Positions 8,445 to 57,560 of a stretch of DNA of 64,000 nt are shown here, piece after piece (the first letter of the stretch is position 1; each line of letters opens with the position of its first letter). The stretch is taken from IMG/VR virus record IMGVR_UViG_3300023707_000001. One strand, written 5' to 3'. The notes under the pieces are model-generated. The model did not search any database and had not been told where the DNA came from. It worked only from the letters and a program-made list of their open reading frames with translations. The stretch comes from a virus. Its lineage: Duplodnaviria > Heunggongvirae > Uroviricota > Caudoviricetes. Made by a program: the position numbers and the translations under genes.

Positions 8445-11400
8445 ATGAGTGTACTTAACGAGGGGAACAATCTCGCTGGTGTCCTGATTGACATCGAAAG
8501 TGAAGTCAGCAGAGATTATGACCCGTCTCTGTGGGGAACTACAGAGTCCGTAGTAGTGATTGGTACAGCATTCCAGGGTCCCGTTGGCGTTCCGACTCAG
8601 ATCTACAACGTAGATATGGCTCGTTACTTCTTCGGTGCAACCTACGATAGTGCAACCCATCGCTCTGCTTCTCTGGTTTCTGGCATTCAGGCCTGCTTTG
8701 AACGCGGCTGCCGTACAATCTACGGTATGCGTGTTGGCGGCAAGGATATTTACAAGGATTTCCGCCTCTGCGAAGCTTCTGAGAAGTATCGCCTGCGTAT
8801 TTCCGGCCAGACCCCGACGAACATTACGAAGCAGTGCTACCTGCGTATTAACGTAGCTTCTGGCTTTGAGCAGATTACGCTCTATAAGCCCGCAACGAAA
8901 GCCACGATTGCTGAAAGAAAACAGGCTCTCGTGGAAGATATGAACTCCGTTCTCGTGTCTCATATCAACCTGAATGCAGACATCGGCCTTACCCGCAACG
9001 ATAAGCTGGTAGACCTCGTAACGCATTTTAACCGCAATGAGCATAACAACGTGTTTGTTATGAGCATTGTTGATGCTGATGGCAACGATGTCACGAACGC
9101 TCCTGAAGCCCAGGACCTGCGTATCGGCTCCCTGTTCTCCGGCGTATATTTCGTAGGCCGTGACAAGAACAGCGCTGCTGCTCCGGCATACTCTGTTGTT
9201 ACGGCTCGCGCTATTATTAGCGAATCCGACCCGAAACCGTATAGCTCTTACAAAGAGAAGTTCTACCGTGTTGTAGAATTCAACTCTGATGTATCCAGCG
9301 AATATCCGATTACCGCTCGTCGTTATGACGAACTGAAGAATCTCCTGCAGGGCGCATCCGTTGCTGCCGGCAGCGATTACAAGTTCCTCGAAACGCCGGG
9401 TGTTGCAGACCGTGTATGGGTTCCGGATGCAGTGGATTACGAAGAGGCAGGCCTGACGGGCTTTGAGCTTTACAAGCGTCTTGGCTCTGGTTTTGCTGTT
9501 ACCGCCCAGGCTATCGAGCGTAAGGGTAAGGACAGCAAGGGTCGTGAACGTCGTCCTCGCATTATTGAAACTCCAGCAGATGACGCTAACCATATCGTCG
9601 GCATTAACGATGGTATCTATGCTCTGCTTGAAAATACGGAATGCCAGTGGCGTGTATTGGTTGCTGCAAACGCTGATGACAAGGCTGATGGCAAGCTGCC
9701 CAAGGCAGAAGCTTTCAAAATTGCATCCCCCAACCAGGTAAAACTGTTTGGTAACCCTGTTAGCGGCAACGGTGCTCTCATCACGGCTACGCCGAAAGTT
9801 GATGAGACTGACCTGACGGCTCCGAAAGAATACGAATTCCATTTCGTAAAGGTTGACGAAGAGGAAACCGAATACGACAACATCGGTGACATTTACACAG
9901 ACCATGTCGCTAAGATTATCGGCCGCGTAGATGGCGGTGTTGCTGAACTGAAGGCAATGCTGAAGAACGACAAGTACCCCAACGGTACGATGTTCCTCGT
10001 ATTTGAACCGGATAATGCTGCAGAAGGACACCTGTACCGCATCCTTGATGGTAAGGCTGGCCTCCTGAATATCTCCCGTCTGGAAAACGAACTGCTGAGC
10101 GTAAACCGCGAACTGTACGTTGGTCAGATTGCAGGCGATAATCTCGTTTTCGTTCCGGCTGATGTAGTTGTAAACACCGATGCTCCTACGACTTATCTCT
10201 CCAAAGAGTATGTTCTCGTAGACAACGGTACGTCCCTGTTTGTTGCTGCTGTTGGTGAATCCAAGGTTAACCCCGGCAAATGCAAGCTCCGTCCTCTGGG
10301 GACGCTTGAAACCATGCTGGGCGACAACGACAACAAGACGCTCATTTACGTTGAAAACTCCTACGGCCAGAAGAACCTTGTCAATATCACGACCGGTGCA
10401 GCGGACTTCATTCCCCTGGAAGAGTTCATGGAACTCATGCAGGAAGATACCTCCCTCAACAAACTGTTCAGCTTCGAGCTGACGGAAGAGGGCGCAGACC
10501 TCCGTTCTGAATACCCCGAGGATATTGAAACGAGTTATGTTACCACGACTGGTGGCAACCCCTACTTCGAGCAGGCACTGCCTGATGGCACGGTAGCTCC
10601 GGGTGAAACGTATGTTCTCGCTGAGGAAAAATCCATCGGATATGACTACAGCAAGTACATTCCGTTCCGTACGAGCGATAACTTCGTTCGTCAGCTCGCA
10701 CAGCACTGCGCAAAGACCTCTCTCGGCACTTCCATGACGCACGGTGTAATTGGTTACAGCCCGCTCCGTAACTACTCCCTTAAGGGTATCGCAGAGCGTG
10801 TAAACGAACTGCTTAGCGCAGATTACTCCCTGTATGCGAAGAAGTGGAACGGCCGCGAAATGCTCGGCCTTGACGGCAACCCGTATGAGGTTGGCGGCAA
10901 TGTAACGGTAACGGCATTCCAGTATCCGATTACGTCCTCAAACGATGGCGTTGTCACTACTGTTAACGGTGCCGCTGGTTATGCCGGCATGGTATCCGTA
11001 CTGCCTGTTGACCAGAGCACAACGCTGCAGCCGACTGGCCTTCCGACGGTTGACTTTATCTTCTCCAACAACCAGCTGAAGCAGTTGATTGGTAAGGGAT
11101 ATGTTACCACGAAGATGTCCAGCACAAAAGGCATCTGCATTGCTGATGGTGTAACGATGGCTCCGGCTTCTGAATTCAGAAACCGCCTCTCCATTGTTCG
11201 TACCATGAACGCTTGCGGCGATTCCATCCGCCAGGCTGCTGAACCTTACATTGGTAAGAAGAACAACCTGCAGAATCGCAGTGCCCTGAAGACGGCTGTT
11301 GATGGCGCTCTTAACAGCCTGAAGGATACGCTCATCTGGGATTACAAGTTCGAGATTGATAACCTGAGCACGTATACAAGCGATGCTGAGATTAACATCA

Positions 11401-51413: not shown

Positions 51414-51953
51414 GTGGTGATAAAAGTGATAGATTTAGAAATGACAGAGAACGGCGATATTAACTGGTCCTCCGAACCCAGCATATCGACTTTCCGCTTG
51501 CGCTTTGCGCTGTCAGACTACAAAACGCAGCATATTCATTTCTTGTGTATGCCGACAAGCCGGAGGCAAAATGTTCCGCCAAAGAAAGGGCAGCATATTC
51601 AGTTCCGCTATGTAGAGCATGGTGATGAACTGAAACTGCAGACAGGACTTGTGCAGGAGCAGAAGGAAACACTTCAATCCTTATATATTGCCTTAAGAAC
51701 AGAACTTGGCGACGTAAATGACGATACGGTAGGTTCCGATTTTTATAAGGTGTCACATAAGATAATTACGGAAAGTAATGACCTGACCTATATTCGTGAC
51801 AGGGCGGGGGAAGTCGTGCAGAAATTCTTCCCCGGCACGCTGCTGGAGGCAGAGTATGTTATCTGCCCAGAGGCTGGCAACTTCAAATACCAGTCTGTAA
51901 AATTCACAATAAAAGATAAAAACAATGAGGTTATCGCCTCATTTGTATTCTAA
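51414..51953 (+). CDS. Baseplate wedge protein (gp25/W-like)
   Basis: IDLEMTENGDI..LRTELGD..VGS pattern; baseplate position. Confidence 0.5.
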   Translation: MVIKVIDLEMTENGDINWSSEPSISTFRLRFALSDYKTQHIHFLCMPTSRRQNVPPKKGQHIQFRYVEHGDELKLQTGLVQEQKETLQSLYIALRTELGDVNDDTVGSDFYKVSHKIITESNDLTYIRDRAGEVVQKFFPGTLLEAEYVICPEAGNFKYQSVKFTIKDKNNEVIASFVF

Positions 51954-51980
51954 GGGAGCAAAAAAGCTCCCTATTTTTTT
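51953..51980 (+). terminator. Terminator insulating the NAD island
   Basis: agggagc-aaaaaa-gctccct-attttttt. Confidence 0.75.
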
Positions 51981-52011: not shown

Positions 52012-52060
52012 TTGACAAATGTAGTAATGTGTACTATGATTAACGTAGTACAAGATACCA
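52012..52060 (+). promoter_or_regulatory. sigma-A promoter with two NrtR-type operators
   Basis: TTGACA(52012)-17 nt-TATGAT(52035); TAGT-N7-ACTA (52022-52036) and TAGT-N7-ACCA (52046-52060). Confidence 0.8.
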
Positions 52061-52078
52061 CATAGAGAGGTTAAAAAA

Positions 52079-52852
52079 ATGAAACAGTCACAGGAAGAGA
52101 AAGAATTTCTCAAGAGCTACAACGCAGCGCAGTACGAAAGGCCGTCGGTAACGGCAGACGTTGTTATCTTTACTATTGATAAGGATAATGACCTGAGTAT
52201 CCTGCTGATAAAACGCGGTGGCCATCCATACAAAGACCACTGGGCGATACCTGGCGGATTCTTGGAAGCAGGAAAAGAATCTATCGATGAAGCTGCGGCC
52301 CGCGAATTGTATGAGGAAACAGGGATAAAAGTTTCCGACGGTATTGAACTTCGGCAGCTTATCACGATGGGCGAACCGAACCGTGACCCAAGAACACATG
52401 TTGTAAGTGTAGTTTACACAGCATTGGTTCCTAAAGGGCTCTTACATATCAAAGCCGGAGACGATGCGAAAGAAGCACAGCTCTTCAAGATTCGCGATTG
52501 GTTCGACGAAGAGGGGAATATTAAGACTCGTTTTATCGGTGACAAGATTTCCCTTACCATGGACAACCTAGCGTTTGACCATGCCCGTATCGTAGAGGTT
52601 GCAATAGAAAGGCTTCGCGGCAGATTAAGTTACACGAATGATGCTTTTGCAATGCTTAAGGATAAAAAGTGCTTCAGAATTTACGAGCTTAAGAAGATTC
52701 ACGAAGCCATCCTGCAGAAAGTAATCGACCGGGCGAATTTCAGAAAGATGTTTATTCGAAACTTTGTCGATACGGGGAAGGTTCGAGAACTGGATAAAAG
52801 TGAGGTAAAGGGCGCAAAAACAGCAATGTATGCCCTGCTTGATAGTCAATAA
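52079..52852 (+). CDS. nrtR: NrtR: Nudix domain + winged-HTH regulator of NAD metabolism
   Basis: YERPSVTADVVIF, WAIPGGF..AARELYEETG, RDPRTHVVS, LAFDH; C-terminal DRANFRK wHTH. Confidence 0.9.
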   Translation: MKQSQEEKEFLKSYNAAQYERPSVTADVVIFTIDKDNDLSILLIKRGGHPYKDHWAIPGGFLEAGKESIDEAAARELYEETGIKVSDGIELRQLITMGEPNRDPRTHVVSVVYTALVPKGLLHIKAGDDAKEAQLFKIRDWFDEEGNIKTRFIGDKISLTMDNLAFDHARIVEVAIERLRGRLSYTNDAFAMLKDKKCFRIYELKKIHEAILQKVIDRANFRKMFIRNFVDTGKVRELDKSEVKGAKTAMYALLDSQ

Positions 52853-53120
52853 CCCCCGCCTAGCGGCTTTGCGCTTGAGGCGGGAGCTTGCGGAAGCAAG
52901 CTCTGATTGACTAGCCTAAGTCTTAACTGACTACGTTGCTTTCGTTATCTCACCCGTGGGTGTTTATCCTAGCTTACGGCTCTGAGCAGGCTCTGTAAAA
53001 GTTCTGAGAGGTAGGAACGGTCAACCTGAGGACGGTCTGGCGTTAATCCAGACAAGCGATTACAACATTGGCGAAGGGTAGATTACTCTAATTTGAAGCT
53101 TTTGCTTCGGAAAGGAGGTA
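52845..53120 (+). ncRNA. omegaRNA (HEARO-like) scaffold of IscB
   Basis: ~275-nt structured leader with GTCAA..GATTGACTAGCCTAAG..GACTACGTT..AACATTGGCGAAGG elements typical of IscB omegaRNAs. Confidence 0.8.
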
Positions 53121-53126
53121 CACGTT

Positions 53127-54395
53127 ATGTTCGTGTACATCATTAACAAAAACGGACAGCCGCTAATGCCCTGCAAGCCTCAAAAAGCAAGAAAGCTCCT
53201 GAAGGCTGGCAAGGCGGAGGTTGTCAAATATGAGCCATTCACTATCAAGCTGAAATTTGGCTCAGCTGGCTACAAACAGCCGATAACTTTAGGTATTGAC
53301 GCCGGCTCCAAACATATTGGGGCTTCCGTGTCAACAGAAAAACAGGAATTATATGCTTCGGAAACAGTCATGCGTTCTGATGATGGCAAGGCTACTATCG
53401 TGAATCTTATAGCAAAACGCAGAGAGCTTCGACGTAACCGCAGAAACCGTAAGACCCGTTATCGCGAAGCAAGATTCTTAAACCATGTTCATCGCAAGCA
53501 CAAAGGCTGGCTTGCTCCAAGCGTAGAGAACAAAATCCATGTCCACCTAAAGCTGGTGGCGGATATCCACAAGATACTGCCCATCACTAAAGTAGTGGTG
53601 GAAGTTGCCCAGTTCGACATTCAGAAGATTAAGAATCCTGATATTTCCGGTGTCGAATATCAACAAGGTGAACAACTTGGTTGGGCTAACGTCAGGGAAT
53701 ATGTATTATTCCGCGACAATCACGAATGTCAGTGTTGCAAAGGCAGATCTGGAGATCCGATACTGAATGTGCATCACATTGAGTCGCGAAAAACTGGCGG
53801 CAACGCACCAAACAATCTGATAACTCTCTGCGAACATTGCCATCAGAGCTATCACCAAGGCAAAATTTCTTTACCTAAGTCGATACATCGCGGCATGAGT
53901 TTCCGAGATGCAGCTTTCATGGGCATCATGCGATGGGCATTCTACAATAGAATTAAGGCGTTATATCAAGACGTCAAACTAACTTATGGTTACATCACGA
54001 AAAATACTCGCATCAAGAATAACATTGCCAAGACACATACAGCTGACGCTTACTGTATCGCCGGGAACGTCAAAGCTAGACGGCTTAAACATGAGTATTT
54101 ACGTAAGCAAGTTCGCAGGCATAATCGCAAACTACATCGAGAAGTGCCAGCTAAAGGTGGTATTCGTCGATTGGCTCAAGCAGGGCATTTCGTAAGAGGC
54201 TTTTGCTTGAACGATACTGTGATGGCCAAAAATCAGCAGTGGTTTATTCGAGGCATGCGTCAAAAGGGCAGTTTTGTTCTAAGACATCTTGATGGCACAA
54301 AACTGGAAATTGCGCTTTCAAAAATAACATTTTTGAGACATAACAATTCTTATTTAATCGAGAGGAGAGAAGTGGCGCTTACCTCCACCCTGTAG
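53127..54395 (+). CDS. iscB: RNA-guided endonuclease IscB
   Basis: PLMP N-terminus; RuvC-I GIDAGSK; Arg-rich bridge helix; RuvC-II VVEVAQFD; HNH VHHI..NLITLCEHCH; RuvC-III HTADAY. Confidence 0.95.
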   Translation: MFVYIINKNGQPLMPCKPQKARKLLKAGKAEVVKYEPFTIKLKFGSAGYKQPITLGIDAGSKHIGASVSTEKQELYASETVMRSDDGKATIVNLIAKRRELRRNRRNRKTRYREARFLNHVHRKHKGWLAPSVENKIHVHLKLVADIHKILPITKVVVEVAQFDIQKIKNPDISGVEYQQGEQLGWANVREYVLFRDNHECQCCKGRSGDPILNVHHIESRKTGGNAPNNLITLCEHCHQSYHQGKISLPKSIHRGMSFRDAAFMGIMRWAFYNRIKALYQDVKLTYGYITKNTRIKNNIAKTHTADAYCIAGNVKARRLKHEYLRKQVRRHNRKLHREVPAKGGIRRLAQAGHFVRGFCLNDTVMAKNQQWFIRGMRQKGSFVLRHLDGTKLEIALSKITFLRHNNSYLIERREVALTSTL

Positions 54396-54440
54396 AGGGT
54401 GGAGTCCCCGCGCCGCGATTTTAGATGGAGGAAAATAGTC

Positions 54441-54998
54441 ATGGAAAATAAGAAAAAAGTATTAATCGTTGTGGATATGCAGAACGACTTTATCGACGGT
54501 GCGCTTGGAACAAAAGAAGCCCAGGCTATTGTCGACAATGTAGCCAAGAAGGTTGCGGAGGCAAAAAAGAACGACGATGTCGTTGTCTTCACACAGGATA
54601 CGCATACGGAAGACTACCTCAATACGCAGGAGGGTAAGAATCTGCCGGTGCCTCATTGCATTAAAGGAACAGATGGTTGGGAGATAACCAGCAAAATTGA
54701 CATTCCTAAAGAATGCCTGATGTACGAAAAAGGTTCCTTTGGTTCTGGTGAACTTGGCAAAGACCTTTCCGATAGCGAAGGGGAAATCAGTGCAATTGAA
54801 TTCGTTGGGCTCTGCACAGATATCTGCGTACTTTCCAACGTGGTTATCGCAAAGGCTGCGCTGCCAGAAGTCCCCATCACAGTAGATGCGGCATGCTGCG
54901 CGGGCGTAACACCGAAGAGCCACGATGAAGCTCTTGGTGCATTGCAGATGATTCAGGTAAAAGTCGTAAATCAAGGACAGGAACCCTGGAGGGCATAA
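54441..54998 (+). CDS. pncA: Nicotinamidase (isochorismatase family)
   Basis: VVDMQNDF, QDTH, PHCI, K, GLCTDICV; ATG 54441 after GGAGG. Confidence 0.88.
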   Translation: MENKKKVLIVVDMQNDFIDGALGTKEAQAIVDNVAKKVAEAKKNDDVVVFTQDTHTEDYLNTQEGKNLPVPHCIKGTDGWEITSKIDIPKECLMYEKGSFGSGELGKDLSDSEGEISAIEFVGLCTDICVLSNVVIAKAALPEVPITVDAACCAGVTPKSHDEALGALQMIQVKVVNQGQEPWRA

Positions 54999-54999
54999 A

Positions 55000-55527
55000 A
55001 TGCGCGTCGGTATTTTTTTCGGGTGCTTCATCCCGTTACATAAGGGCCATGAAGAAATGATTCGCTTAGCAATGAAGGAAAATGACCACCTGATTCTTGG
55101 TATATGTGGATACGATAACGACCGAGGAAAGGGGTATCTTTCATTCAGAGAACGACTAAGGTTAATGACAAAACTTTTTGGCGACAAGGAAAATGTGACG
55201 CTTGCAGTTGTGGATGATAAGAAAGTCGGGCTCAAGGGAACATTTAGCGTGAACGCCTGGAAGCTTTGGTCGGACGAATTGTTTGAGAATGCCAAATTCA
55301 ATCCGAACGACAAGTCTCACCAGTACACCTGGTATTCTGGTGAGCCGGACTATCTGGAAAAGATACAGGAACTTTACCCGACCCACGAAATAAAACATAT
55401 ACCGAGGACGTTAATTCCTATTTCGGGAACTCAGATTAGAAACAATACAACTAAGTACAGGGAAGATGTTAATCCGCTTTTTGCAGTCTATCTTGCAGAG
55501 CGGGGATTGATGGAGGAAAAATTATGA
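55000..55527 (+). CDS. NMN/NaMN adenylyltransferase (NadM/NadR-N-like)
   Basis: GCFIPLHKGH (HxGH) and ISGTQIR motifs; no kinase domain; inside NAD operon. Confidence 0.75.
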   Translation: MRVGIFFGCFIPLHKGHEEMIRLAMKENDHLILGICGYDNDRGKGYLSFRERLRLMTKLFGDKENVTLAVVDDKKVGLKGTFSVNAWKLWSDELFENAKFNPNDKSHQYTWYSGEPDYLEKIQELYPTHEIKHIPRTLIPISGTQIRNNTTKYREDVNPLFAVYLAERGLMEEKL

Positions 55528-56741
55528 AATTCAAACAGATTATTAACTCACTTCTGGAAACCGACCTTTACAAATTCAGCATGGGGCAGGCTATCTTCCA
55601 CCAGGCCAGCGAATTTGAAACGACCTGGTCATTTAAGTGCCGTAACAAGGATGTGTTCTTCACCCCTGAAATGGTTGAAGAAATCCGCGAACAGATTCGT
55701 GCGTTCTGCAATTTGAGTTTTACAGAAGATGAACTGGATTATCTTGCCAATATCAAATGGCTGAAAAAATCCTACATCAATCACCTCCGCTTGTGGCATC
55801 CGAACTTTGACAATTTCATTATTAAAGCGGGCGGAGAAAAAGGGCTTATCCTTGAAGCAAAAGGAACGCTTCTTGATACCTCCATGTATGAAATTCCGAC
55901 TCTGGCCATTGTCAATGAGGTGTATTTCCGGTTCCGTGACGACTACGCATTGCTCGTTGAAGATTCAAAGGCACGGACAAGAGCAAAGGCAGAAAAGCTC
56001 CAGATGGGGAAATACTGGCTGCCGGTATTCTCTGAATTTGGCCTTCGCCGCCGCCTTTGCGCAGAAGCACAGGAATATGCTGTAGAAACATTCTCGAAAC
56101 TGGATTGTCACGATGTATTGCGTTCGCATTTTGTCGGTACGTCCAATGTTTATCTGGCCAAGAAATATGGTGTAACTCCTGTCGGCACGATGGCGCATGA
56201 ATGGATTATGTGCATGGGACAGGGCAATCATCTTTACAATCCGGCATATTCCAACAAGGTAGCTCTTGAAGCTTGGGTAAGAGAATATGGCGTGGATAAT
56301 GGTATCGCTCTTACTGACACGATTACTACGGACTGCTTCTTGCGTGATTTCGACAAAACACTGGCAACGCTCTTTAGCGGTGTCCGTCACGATTCTGGCG
56401 ATCCGTTTGTGTGGGGCGATAAGATGATTGACCATTACACCCGCCTTGGTATTGACCCTGCAACAAAGACCCTGCTGTTCTCAGATTCTCTTGATTTTGA
56501 GAGAGCTGATAAAATTGCGCGTTATTTCCAGGGTAAGGCAAAAGTAGCTTTTGGTATTGGTACTTATATCTCAAACGATACCTACGCAACGCCGCTAAAC
56601 ATCGTTATGAAGGTTACGGAATGCAACGGAAGCCCGGTGGCCAAAATCTCCGATACGGAAGGTAAGGGAATGTGCAAGAGTCAGGAATATGTTGACTACC
56701 TGCAGCGTTCGATTGACTGGCGTCTGAAAAACAACGATTGA
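55524..56741 (+). CDS. pncB: Nicotinate phosphoribosyltransferase
   Basis: LETDLYKFSM, EFGLRRR, GTSNV, GTMAHEW, GVRHDSGDP, FSDSL, FGIGT, KISD. Confidence 0.92.
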   Translation: MKFKQIINSLLETDLYKFSMGQAIFHQASEFETTWSFKCRNKDVFFTPEMVEEIREQIRAFCNLSFTEDELDYLANIKWLKKSYINHLRLWHPNFDNFIIKAGGEKGLILEAKGTLLDTSMYEIPTLAIVNEVYFRFRDDYALLVEDSKARTRAKAEKLQMGKYWLPVFSEFGLRRRLCAEAQEYAVETFSKLDCHDVLRSHFVGTSNVYLAKKYGVTPVGTMAHEWIMCMGQGNHLYNPAYSNKVALEAWVREYGVDNGIALTDTITTDCFLRDFDKTLATLFSGVRHDSGDPFVWGDKMIDHYTRLGIDPATKTLLFSDSLDFERADKIARYFQGKAKVAFGIGTYISNDTYATPLNIVMKVTECNGSPVAKISDTEGKGMCKSQEYVDYLQRSIDWRLKNND

Positions 56742-56752
56742 GAGGAATAAAT

Positions 56753-57523
56753 ATGTATCCAGAATTTGACGCGGAAAAAGACAAACAAAAAATTATTGAT
56801 TTTATCAGAATGTGGTTTGCGATAAATGCAAGCCTGGACACAAAAGCTGTTATCGGAATTTCAGGCGGCAAGGATTCTTCTATTGCTGCAGCGCTCTGCG
56901 TAGAGGCGCTTGGAAAGGATAGTGTCGTCGGCGTACTTATGCCAAACGGTGTACAGGCAGATATTGACGATGCTCTGGCTTTGGTAAAACACCTTGATAT
57001 CAAATACCGCATTGTAAATATTGAGGCGCCTTACAAGGCTATGCTAAAGGCCATCCAGTACACAGAAACAGCAAGTGACAATAATTTTTACTTTTCCGTG
57101 ACCAGCCAGCTCACGCAAAATCTGGCTCCGAGACTTAGAATGGCAACTCTGTATGCAGTAGCGCAGGGGGTTCATGGCGGCGGCCGTGTAATTAACACCT
57201 GTAACCGTTCGGAAGATTATGTTGGCTATAGCACAAAATTTGGCGATAGCGCCGGCGACATATCTCCTCTTGGAGCATATACGGTTGATGAAATTCTCGC
57301 TATTGGCGATACGCTCGACCTGCCTGAAAAGCTCGTACATAAGGCGCCATCTGATGGCCTTTGCGGTAAGACCGATGAAGATAACCTTGGGTTTACTTAC
57401 GCAGTGCTTGATAAATACATCAAGACGGGAGAGTGTAAAGACGAAGTCACCCAGAAAAAGATTGACGAACTGCACGATAAAAACCTGCATAAACTGAAAC
57501 CACTACCAATGGTTGAGCGGTAA
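56753..57523 (+). CDS. nadE: NH3-dependent NAD+ synthetase
   Basis: GISGGKDS, NLAPRLRM, GYSTKFGD, KAPSDGL..TDEDNLG; no glutaminase domain. Confidence 0.92.
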   Translation: MYPEFDAEKDKQKIIDFIRMWFAINASLDTKAVIGISGGKDSSIAAALCVEALGKDSVVGVLMPNGVQADIDDALALVKHLDIKYRIVNIEAPYKAMLKAIQYTETASDNNFYFSVTSQLTQNLAPRLRMATLYAVAQGVHGGGRVINTCNRSEDYVGYSTKFGDSAGDISPLGAYTVDEILAIGDTLDLPEKLVHKAPSDGLCGKTDEDNLGFTYAVLDKYIKTGECKDEVTQKKIDELHDKNLHKLKPLPMVER

Positions 57524-57526
57524 GAT

Positions 57527-57560
57527 AAAAAGCCTCTATCGAAATGATGGAGGCTTTTGT
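57527..57560 (+). terminator. Terminator closing the NAD island
   Basis: aaaagcctctatc-gaaat-gatggaggctttt. Confidence 0.8.

Follow-up and report, generated by a model that had tools for sequence, protein, structure and literature searches.

The 64,000-nt stretch analyzed here (the window) belongs to the IMG/VR virus record IMGVR_UViG_3300023707_000001 and carries, at positions 52012-57560, a predicted operon for the salvage of NAD+. We give a probability of about 55% to the reading that this operon is a working, self-regulated module leading from nicotinamide to NAD+, that it represents an accessory cassette taken from a Lachnospiraceae-type host operon, and that its role includes the countering of NADase immunity. 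The window corresponds to the reverse strand of 61117-125116 in the 235,547-bp record, the completeness of which is 96% according to CheckV. Its genes are found on one strand throughout and include those for the major head protein, a 1014-amino-acid (aa) tail sheath protein and giant virion proteins as well as weak baseplate-like genes. The record represents a large, contractile-tailed, uncultured phage that probably infects rumen Lachnospiraceae.

The genes nrtR, a HEARO/omega RNA, iscB, pncA, a gene for a NadR-type adenylyltransferase, pncB and nadE follow each other in this order, all on the plus strand, as are the promoter, operator and terminator sites discussed below. On the left side the module is separated by an intrinsic terminator (51953..51972; 7-bp GC-rich stem and T-run, conserved in the related phage locus L004), which closes the upstream structural gene, and on the right side by a second one (57528..57558; 14-bp stem and T-run), which is the strongest terminator-like site in the region. 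The terminator-bounded operon nrtR-pncA-adenylyltransferase-pncB-nadE of the original prediction does exist, but it is interrupted by a 1.6-kb IscB mobile element that had gone unreported. The claim that it sits between two baseplate genes found little backing, because the downstream 262-aa gene gave weak matches to baseplate PHROG families (E-value, E, about 5e-5) and the upstream 179-aa gene none. The slot lies inside the tail genes, among the late structural genes.

All enzyme activities of the module are inferred from family assignments and intact active sites. The gene pncA (54441..54998) codes for a predicted nicotinamidase, which would convert nicotinamide into nicotinate and NH3; the protein of isochorismatase fold matches PF00857 (E 8e-25), and its best match in the Protein Data Bank (PDB) is PncA from P. 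horikoshii (1ILW). According to the alignment with L004 and independent gene calls, ATG 54441 (185 aa) is the most likely start, not GTG 54399. The triad D26/K111/C143 and the metal site D67/H69/H86 (GTG-start numbering) do not vary among 63 homologues from phages and bacteria. The nicotinate phosphoribosyltransferase predicted from pncB (55524..56741) would form nicotinate mononucleotide (NaMN) from nicotinate and phosphoribosyl pyrophosphate (PRPP). It scores above the cut-offs of TIGR01514 (414 bits, cut-off 270) and NF003704 (471 bits), contains both Pfam domains, and the histidine of its GTxAH motif is invariant in 110/110 homologues. The gene nadE (56753..57523) codes for a single-domain NAD+ synthetase (TIGR00552, 170 bits, cut-off 64) with an SGGxDS loop (SGGKDS, residues 42-47) that is invariant in 105 homologues; the top PDB hits are short NadEs (3FIU, 2E18 and 3P52). 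The lack of a glutaminase domain in this single-domain protein predicts ammonia dependence, in line with the NH3-type NadE originally proposed. The reuse of PncA-released ammonia by NadE is possible in stoichiometric terms only. Hence, the PncA, PncB and NadE steps of the postulated deamidating pathway are covered by intact and conserved genes, while its adenylyltransferase proved to be of the nicotinamide mononucleotide (NMN) type and not a NadD.

The cluster is under purifying selection within the phage lineage. Compared with L004, the nonsynonymous divergence (dN) of its genes is 0.04-0.23, similar to the flanking structural genes, and synonymous sites (dS) are saturated for most genes, so that dN/dS could be computed for two genes only, pncB (0.03) and pncA (0.08). 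The pncA gene (54441-54998 compared to 6922-7473 in L004) shows a dS of 0.47, far below its saturated neighbours, which hints at a more recent exchange of pncA alone.

The regulatory part of the module consists of nrtR and two predicted operators. Transcription may start at a promoter of the sigma-70/sigma-A type, TTGACA-17-TATGAT (52012..52040), which has 11/12 consensus matches and is the best in the scanned region; its -35 box and spacing are shared with the four relatives L003-L006 and other phage nrtR loci. The predicted operator 1, GTAGTA-N5-TACTAT (52021..52037), overlaps the promoter spacer and the -10 box and is conserved in the relatives, while the predicted operator 2, GTAGTA-N5-TACCAC (52045..52061), lies between promoter and ribosome-binding site and is identical in L003-L006. 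Both are imperfect palindromes containing the GT-N7-AC core defined for NrtR sites (PMC2330246), and no other site in the 235-kb genome comes within one mismatch of GTAGTA-N5-TACTAC. Looser matches occur at chance level (7 observed vs 10.6 in shuffles), and the operator search gave no further NrtR targets in the phage genome, the vicinity of the ligase gene included. Close relatives share the layout of TTGACA and twin palindromes, and it recurs in several unrelated, divergent phage nrtR loci.

The nrtR gene itself (52079..52852) encodes a Nudix-related regulator composed of a Nudix domain (PF00293, E 1e-19) and a winged helix (PF21906, NrtR_WHD, over cut-off). Its score against NF050029 (E 8e-39, 133 bits) remains below the equivalog cut-off of that model (400 bits), therefore we regard it as a member of the family and do not call it an equivalog. 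Full-length alignments were obtained with two structures, 2FML of the NrtR family (E 3e-32) and 3GZ5, the NrtR from S. oneidensis. The catalytic residues of its Nudix box, REx2EE, are all intact and invariant in 18 homologues, hence the phage protein may also hydrolyse ADP-ribose. ADP-ribose releases NrtR of S. oneidensis and Synechocystis from DNA in vitro (PMC2330246), and by analogy the phage NrtR is expected to respond to it as well. In two other viral loci (L029, 5930-7384; L032, 5959-7383) a 484-aa protein consisting of an NrtR-like Nudix regulator and a NadM-type NMN adenylyltransferase (NMNAT) is encoded upstream of pncA-pncB-nadE.

Several observations indicate that the module is truly phage-borne. 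In four relatives (L003-L006; 184-224 kb; 73-80% nucleotide identity) the cluster occupies the identical slot but lacks the IscB insertion, and independent assemblies of ENA, Logan and JGI samples contain the same phage together with the insertion. Absence from related phages or an assembly chimera had been named as findings that would speak against the original prediction; instead, the cluster is present in these four diverged relatives, and a chimera can be rejected on the basis of the independent assemblies, the relatives and the base composition, which is even in the reported region and the same as in the rest of the window. The cluster is missing from more distantly related phages that share the structural lineage, among them two near-complete genomes without any gene of the nicotinate phosphoribosyltransferase (NAPRTase) family, hence we regard it as an accessory cassette of this clade. 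In L006 an extra insert of about 200 bp (9222-9428) is found between pncB and nadE, which is present neither in the window nor in L003-L005.

The operon looks host-derived, from an operon of the Lachnospiraceae type. A word-based homologue search with the adenylyltransferase returned 10 metagenomic proteins only, whereas a profile scan of genomes identified 39 bacterial loci, almost all from rumen Butyrivibrio and other Lachnospiraceae, with 40-51% identity. Most of them carry NMNAT-pncB-nadE, and three contigs of metagenome-assembled genomes (L089, L092, L096) have nrtR-pncA-NMNAT-pncB-nadE in exactly the phage order; in L092 the neighbouring genes, for a MatE transporter and a GH94 phosphorylase, give the cluster a chromosomal context. 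The caveat of the original prediction that similar clusters occur on bacterial chromosomes was thus well taken, all the more since Clostridium acetobutylicum possesses an operon nrtR-pncA-pncB-nadD-nadE (PMC2330246). This identity of gene order could be explained by host DNA that was mis-assembled into a phage contig, or by a decaying passenger without function. We consider this highly improbable, given the recurrence of the phage context across assemblies and relatives, the uniform base composition, the intact active sites and low dN values of all enzymes, and the fact that the module proteins are only 37-69% identical to their bacterial counterparts, a divergence that argues for an old capture and not for contamination.

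The adenylyltransferase (55000..55527) is a stand-alone NadR-type enzyme of 175 aa with an NMNAT domain. It matches TIGR01526 (E 1.7e-24) at model positions 1-154 of 325, so that the ribosylnicotinamide kinase domain is absent, and finds its best PDB match in NadR of L. lactis (6GYE, E 4e-22), followed at distance by the NARP3 protein Bas30_86 (9X6F, E 1.6e-8). In 16 homologues its HxGH and ISGTxIR motifs show no variation. An assignment as NadD was rejected, because NadD models reached E 3e-5 at best, and the enzyme is the only one of its kind, as no second CTP_transf_like gene was found in the phage genome. The gene is translationally coupled between pncA and pncB. A NadD gene fills the matching slot between pncB and nadE in 44 other viral loci, and in the two viral loci mentioned above a NadM-type enzyme is fused to NrtR. 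Moreover, an NMNAT::NadE fusion in a single open reading frame (ORF; P0011, L033 13676-14917) was found in a 467-kb phage with direct terminal repeats (IMGVR_UViG_3300021431_002946), which represents a Rosetta-stone link between the two enzymes. An in-frame fusion of the NadR-type NMNAT with PncB, in an ORF of about 575-620 aa, is encoded in 20/39 of the Butyrivibrio/Lachnospiraceae loci (L094, L101-L108, L111-L115, L117, L123-L127); no description of such an NMNAT::PncB fusion was found in a literature search. The occurrence of NadD in the same slot elsewhere together with the fusions to NadE and PncB ties the adenylyltransferase to the PncB-NadE pathway and makes a side job less plausible. 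Since the enzyme is of the NMN type, the step from NaMN to nicotinate adenine dinucleotide (NaAD) is deduced from these relations and not read from its family. The NadE of the operon type is the sole NadE in 3/5 Butyrivibrio genomes in which NadD is also present, hence in these bacteria it must amidate NaAD. Together with the PncB fusion, this gene content favours the classical order, in which the NadR-type enzyme would accept NaMN as substrate.

Two other arrangements of the last steps have to be weighed against this order. NadE might amidate NaMN to NMN, which the NadR-type enzyme then converts directly to NAD+ without NaAD, as in the Francisella-type route. A precedent for it is given in PMC3376133, the adenylyltransferase belongs to an NMN-type family, and among PDB entries the phage NadE scores highest with the Francisella NMN synthetase (3FIU, 117 bits vs 109 bits for 2E18), the reverse of the ranking obtained with a phage NadE linked to NadD. 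The margin of 8 bits is, however, small, and the literature mentioning FtNadE yielded no specificity residues. NadEs linked to NadR-type or NadM-type enzymes also group together in the NadE tree, but co-inheritance can explain such grouping, which is why we do not count it as a sign of changed function. Furthermore, an archaeal NadE of the short type whose partner is NadM acts as an ordinary NAD synthetase (PMC3376133), the NadE homologue in the operon of the NadD-bearing Butyrivibrio has to use NaAD, and the frequent NMNAT::PncB fusion joins consecutive steps in the classical order only. Taken together, we regard the Francisella-type order as unlikely. Even less likely appears a strictly NMN-specific adenylyltransferase that recycles NMN, for example released by the ligase, while the host NadD performs the step from NaMN to NaAD and the phage set is not self-sufficient. 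The affiliation with NadR-type NMNATs, the presence of a true NadD in the likely hosts and the NMN-yielding ligase of the phage agree with such a role; it does not easily account for a gene that is translationally coupled inside the operon, fills the NadD slot of other phage clusters and in other genomes forms a fusion with PncB or NadE. The classical order with NaMN as substrate of the NadR-type enzyme therefore remains our preferred assumption.

On this basis, the module would act as follows. NrtR would occupy the two operators over a host-type promoter until ADP-ribose, which appears whenever NAD+ is cleaved, releases it and permits transcription of the operon through the IscB insert. PncA would then deamidate nicotinamide, PncB would join nicotinate with host PRPP to NaMN, the NadR-type adenylyltransferase would most likely act on NaMN and thereby do the job that NadD has in most other phage clusters, and the NH3-dependent NadE would complete NAD+. 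As a result, infected cells would restore NAD+ more quickly from the product of its own breakdown. We think that its main value lies in the upkeep of NAD+ when NADase effectors such as Thoeris, DSR and SIR2-HerA as well as the NAD+-dependent ligase of the phage drain the pool. The anti-defence role is inferred by analogy to the NAD+ reconstitution pathways NARP1, NARP2 and NARP3, for which it is established that NAD+ rebuilding defeats NADase defences (bioRxiv 10.1101/2024.02.11.579819; PMC13464706). In this regard, the start from nicotinamide and the likely ADP-ribose switch correspond to the two products of NADase effectors, and SIR2_2 proteins occur in 8/61 genomes sampled from the likely host genus. 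The module is thus a credible way to resist bacterial immunity that destroys NAD+. The more specific proposal of an inducible counter-defence, in which ADP-ribose released by NADases lifts the phage NrtR from a fourth, deamidating NAD+ reconstitution pathway with a NadR-type enzyme at the NaMN step, can be put forward only tentatively.

A serious rival is that the cassette has a purely auxiliary metabolic function, providing a large phage and its own ligase with NAD+ in a niacin-auxotrophic host, without any specific role against immunity; NrtR would then simply keep the ordinary homeostatic control known from bacteria. The phage does encode an NAD+-dependent DNA ligase of the LigA type (PF01653, 643-aa ORF, G000:C1:184175-184864, outside the window), an enzyme that consumes NAD+ and produces NMN. 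Moreover, quinolinate synthase (NadA) is absent from 4/5 Butyrivibrio genomes (G001-G005), so that salvage is their only route to NAD+; these four have PncA, PncB, NadD and NadE and appear to be niacin auxotrophs. The operon is also a copy of a housekeeping host operon including its regulator (PMC2330246), and Li et al. 2024 interpreted such clusters mainly as NAD+ supply (PMC11662467). On the other hand, the same argument had been made for phage Nampt/Nmnat before NARP2 was shown to counter NADase defences, and a pathway fed by nicotinamide and switched by ADP-ribose would react to an attack by NADases irrespective of its other functions. The two roles are not mutually exclusive and overlap in practice; supply as the exclusive function seems to us possible but less likely. 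If it were true, the module would add to the auxiliary metabolic cassettes of jumbo phages, a phenomenon described before.

Several further points weigh against a role in counter-defence or against the completeness of the pathway. The module is located among late structural genes and not among early genes, and in this phage 1.6 kb of the IscB element separate the promoter from the enzyme genes. Because the likely hosts already own the same operon, the phage adds dosage and not a new reaction. The four steps of the route consume PRPP as well as up to three ATP, and no PRPP source is encoded in the phage, as judged by the lack of a PF13793 match. The adenylyltransferase family is known for NMN and not for NaMN; an activity with NaMN is not documented for the nearest solved relatives, and the paper on L. 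lactis NadR is silent on this substrate. A literature search found no test of a phage nicotinamidase, PncB or NadE against NADase defences. The host assignment depends on one protein with 40-51% identity. Finally, PncB is the only NAPRTase-family gene in this phage and in 28/28 near-complete cluster-bearing viral records, so that Nampt and Namat, the hallmarks of NARP2 and NARP1, are missing there; this agrees with the anti-defence reading, but the absence from 29 genomes is not statistically meaningful because they are related.

The basic observation is not new, since phage gene sets of the same kind have already been described. The original prediction had regarded the module as a candidate third system and amidated routes as the only ones reported from phages. 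Both statements are superseded, because NARP3, consisting of PnuC and NadR, is already published (PMC13464706), and Preiss-Handler clusters were reported from jumbo phages together with the suggestion of counter-defence (PMC11662467). In the survey by Li et al. 2024, a complete salvage or Preiss-Handler pathway was encoded by 174/668 gut jumbo phages, with a pncB-nadD-nadE cluster among the examples, and the authors considered counter-defence as a possibility besides their main interpretation (PMC11662467). The phage described here resembles these NAD-jumbo phages, which are likewise uncultured, exceed 200 kb and complete NAD+ synthesis via PncB and NadE with clustered genes; at 235,547 bp it falls into the same size class, and its gene set is complete if the NadR-type enzyme or NadE accepts NaMN. 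It differs in that pncA is part of the operon, a NadR-type NMNAT replaces NadD, NrtR with its operators is present, which is unmentioned in PMC11662467, and the likely host belongs to the Lachnospiraceae and not to the Bacteroidota. This variant is thus set apart by a NadR-type enzyme at the position of NadD, by phage control of pncA and NrtR, and by its Lachnospiraceae origin. The NadR-type enzyme in the NadD slot seems to be new, as is a phage-borne NrtR circuit that should respond to ADP-ribose.

Similar relations exist to other known systems. With the bacterial NrtR salvage operons (PMC2330246) the module shares genes, order, autoregulated promoter, GT-N7-AC operators and a repressor released by ADP-ribose; in contrast to them, it is virus-borne within a tail-gene module, interrupted by IscB and divergent in protein sequence. 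NARP2 (Nampt and Nmnat; bioRxiv 10.1101/2024.02.11.579819) is likewise phage-encoded, leads from nicotinamide, PRPP and ATP to NAD+ and uses an adenylyltransferase of the NMNAT class, but it needs two amidated steps without deamidation, whereas the present route lacks Nampt, runs via nicotinate and NaMN and requires NadE, and its anti-defence role is assigned by analogy. Membership in NARP2 was rejected, since an NMNAT-class enzyme is present but no second NAPRTase-family gene. NARP3 (PnuC and the bifunctional NadR, Bas30_86/87; PMC13464706) contains a distant homologue of the adenylyltransferase in the NMNAT domain of Bas30_86; the enzyme studied here is, however, a 175-aa protein without kinase domain, and its pathway would start from nicotinamide made in the cell and not from imported nicotinamide riboside. 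The absence of a PF04973 (PnuC) match and of the ribosylnicotinamide kinase domain excluded this system. NARP1 (Adps and Namat) is similar insofar as both are thought to rebuild NAD+ from NADase cleavage products, but ADP-ribose would serve here at most as a signal via NrtR and not as a building block; without a PF13793 (PRPS-like Adps) match and with PncB as the only PF04095 gene, this assignment was rejected as well. The Francisella tularensis NadE*/NadM route (cited in PMC3376133) also combines a NadE homologue, with 3FIU as best match, and an NMN-type adenylyltransferase downstream of NaMN; the adenylyltransferase here is NadR-type and not NadM, and the host genomes and fusions favour the classical order.

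If the module rescues phages from NADase immunity, a deamidated route would join NARP1, NARP2 and NARP3, and NAD+ reconstitution would appear as a general phage strategy that uses any salvage chemistry of the host lineage. The virus-borne ADP-ribose sensor NrtR could then couple counter-defence to the product of defence. This sensor would be new to biology, as would the NadR-type enzyme that seems to take the place of NadD; the latter is common in rumen Butyrivibrio and there frequently fused to PncB, hence its substrate range matters for bacterial NAD+ metabolism, too.

Relatives of PncB were found on at least 135 IMG/VR contigs. The co-occurrence of pncA, pncB and nadE in phages, which the original prediction had suggested to search for, was confirmed, as all four steps are encoded within 8 kb in 55/80 loci fetched, in at least seven architectures. 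Whole-cluster nucleotide searches against GenBank phages and PLSDB plasmids gave nothing useful, while a protein search with PncB retrieved 13 GenBank phage records with at most 42% identity. Among them, Atu_ph07 has pncB and a nearby ADP-ribose pyrophosphatase without the full cluster, and the records of 'Acinetobacter phage MD-2021a' resemble bacterial DNA; a cultured model phage was not found among the GenBank phage records. A group of viral loci (L009-L028, e.g. L012 7923-10649) has pncB-nadE followed by a Nudix protein most similar to ADP-ribose/NudE-type hydrolases, with pncA and the adenylyltransferase absent nearby and, in L012, a GmrSD-like gene upstream. Three NadD-type carriers of roughly 160 kb (L068, L073, L076; records G089, G090, G093) are classed as proviruses by IMG/VR, hence some carriers of the pathway may be temperate.

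The IscB element is a mobile insertion outside the NAD+ pathway. It comprises the HEARO/omega RNA (52845..53086; Rfam RF02033, 116.6 bits, gathering 83, E 2.5e-24, full model length) and iscB (53127..54395), which encodes a 422-aa RNA-guided HNH/RuvC nuclease with RRXRR and HNH domains (NF040563, 376 bits, cut-off 175). In L003-L006, from which IscB is absent, nrtR abuts pncA, with 28 bp where this phage has about 1.6 kb. The insertion sits exactly at the nrtR/pncA junction and has replaced the last six or so residues of NrtR, and the downstream pncA keeps its own ribosome-binding site and ATG. Since no terminator-like hairpin was detected on the plus strand between nrtR and pncA, transcriptional read-through from the nrtR promoter into pncA is plausible. 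TnpA was not seen adjoining this IscB copy or a second copy of IscB and HEARO with 77% identity, which is located in L002 (1503-3075; G000:C1 about 208161-209765) inside a tRNA array comprising five tRNAs in 4.6 kb.

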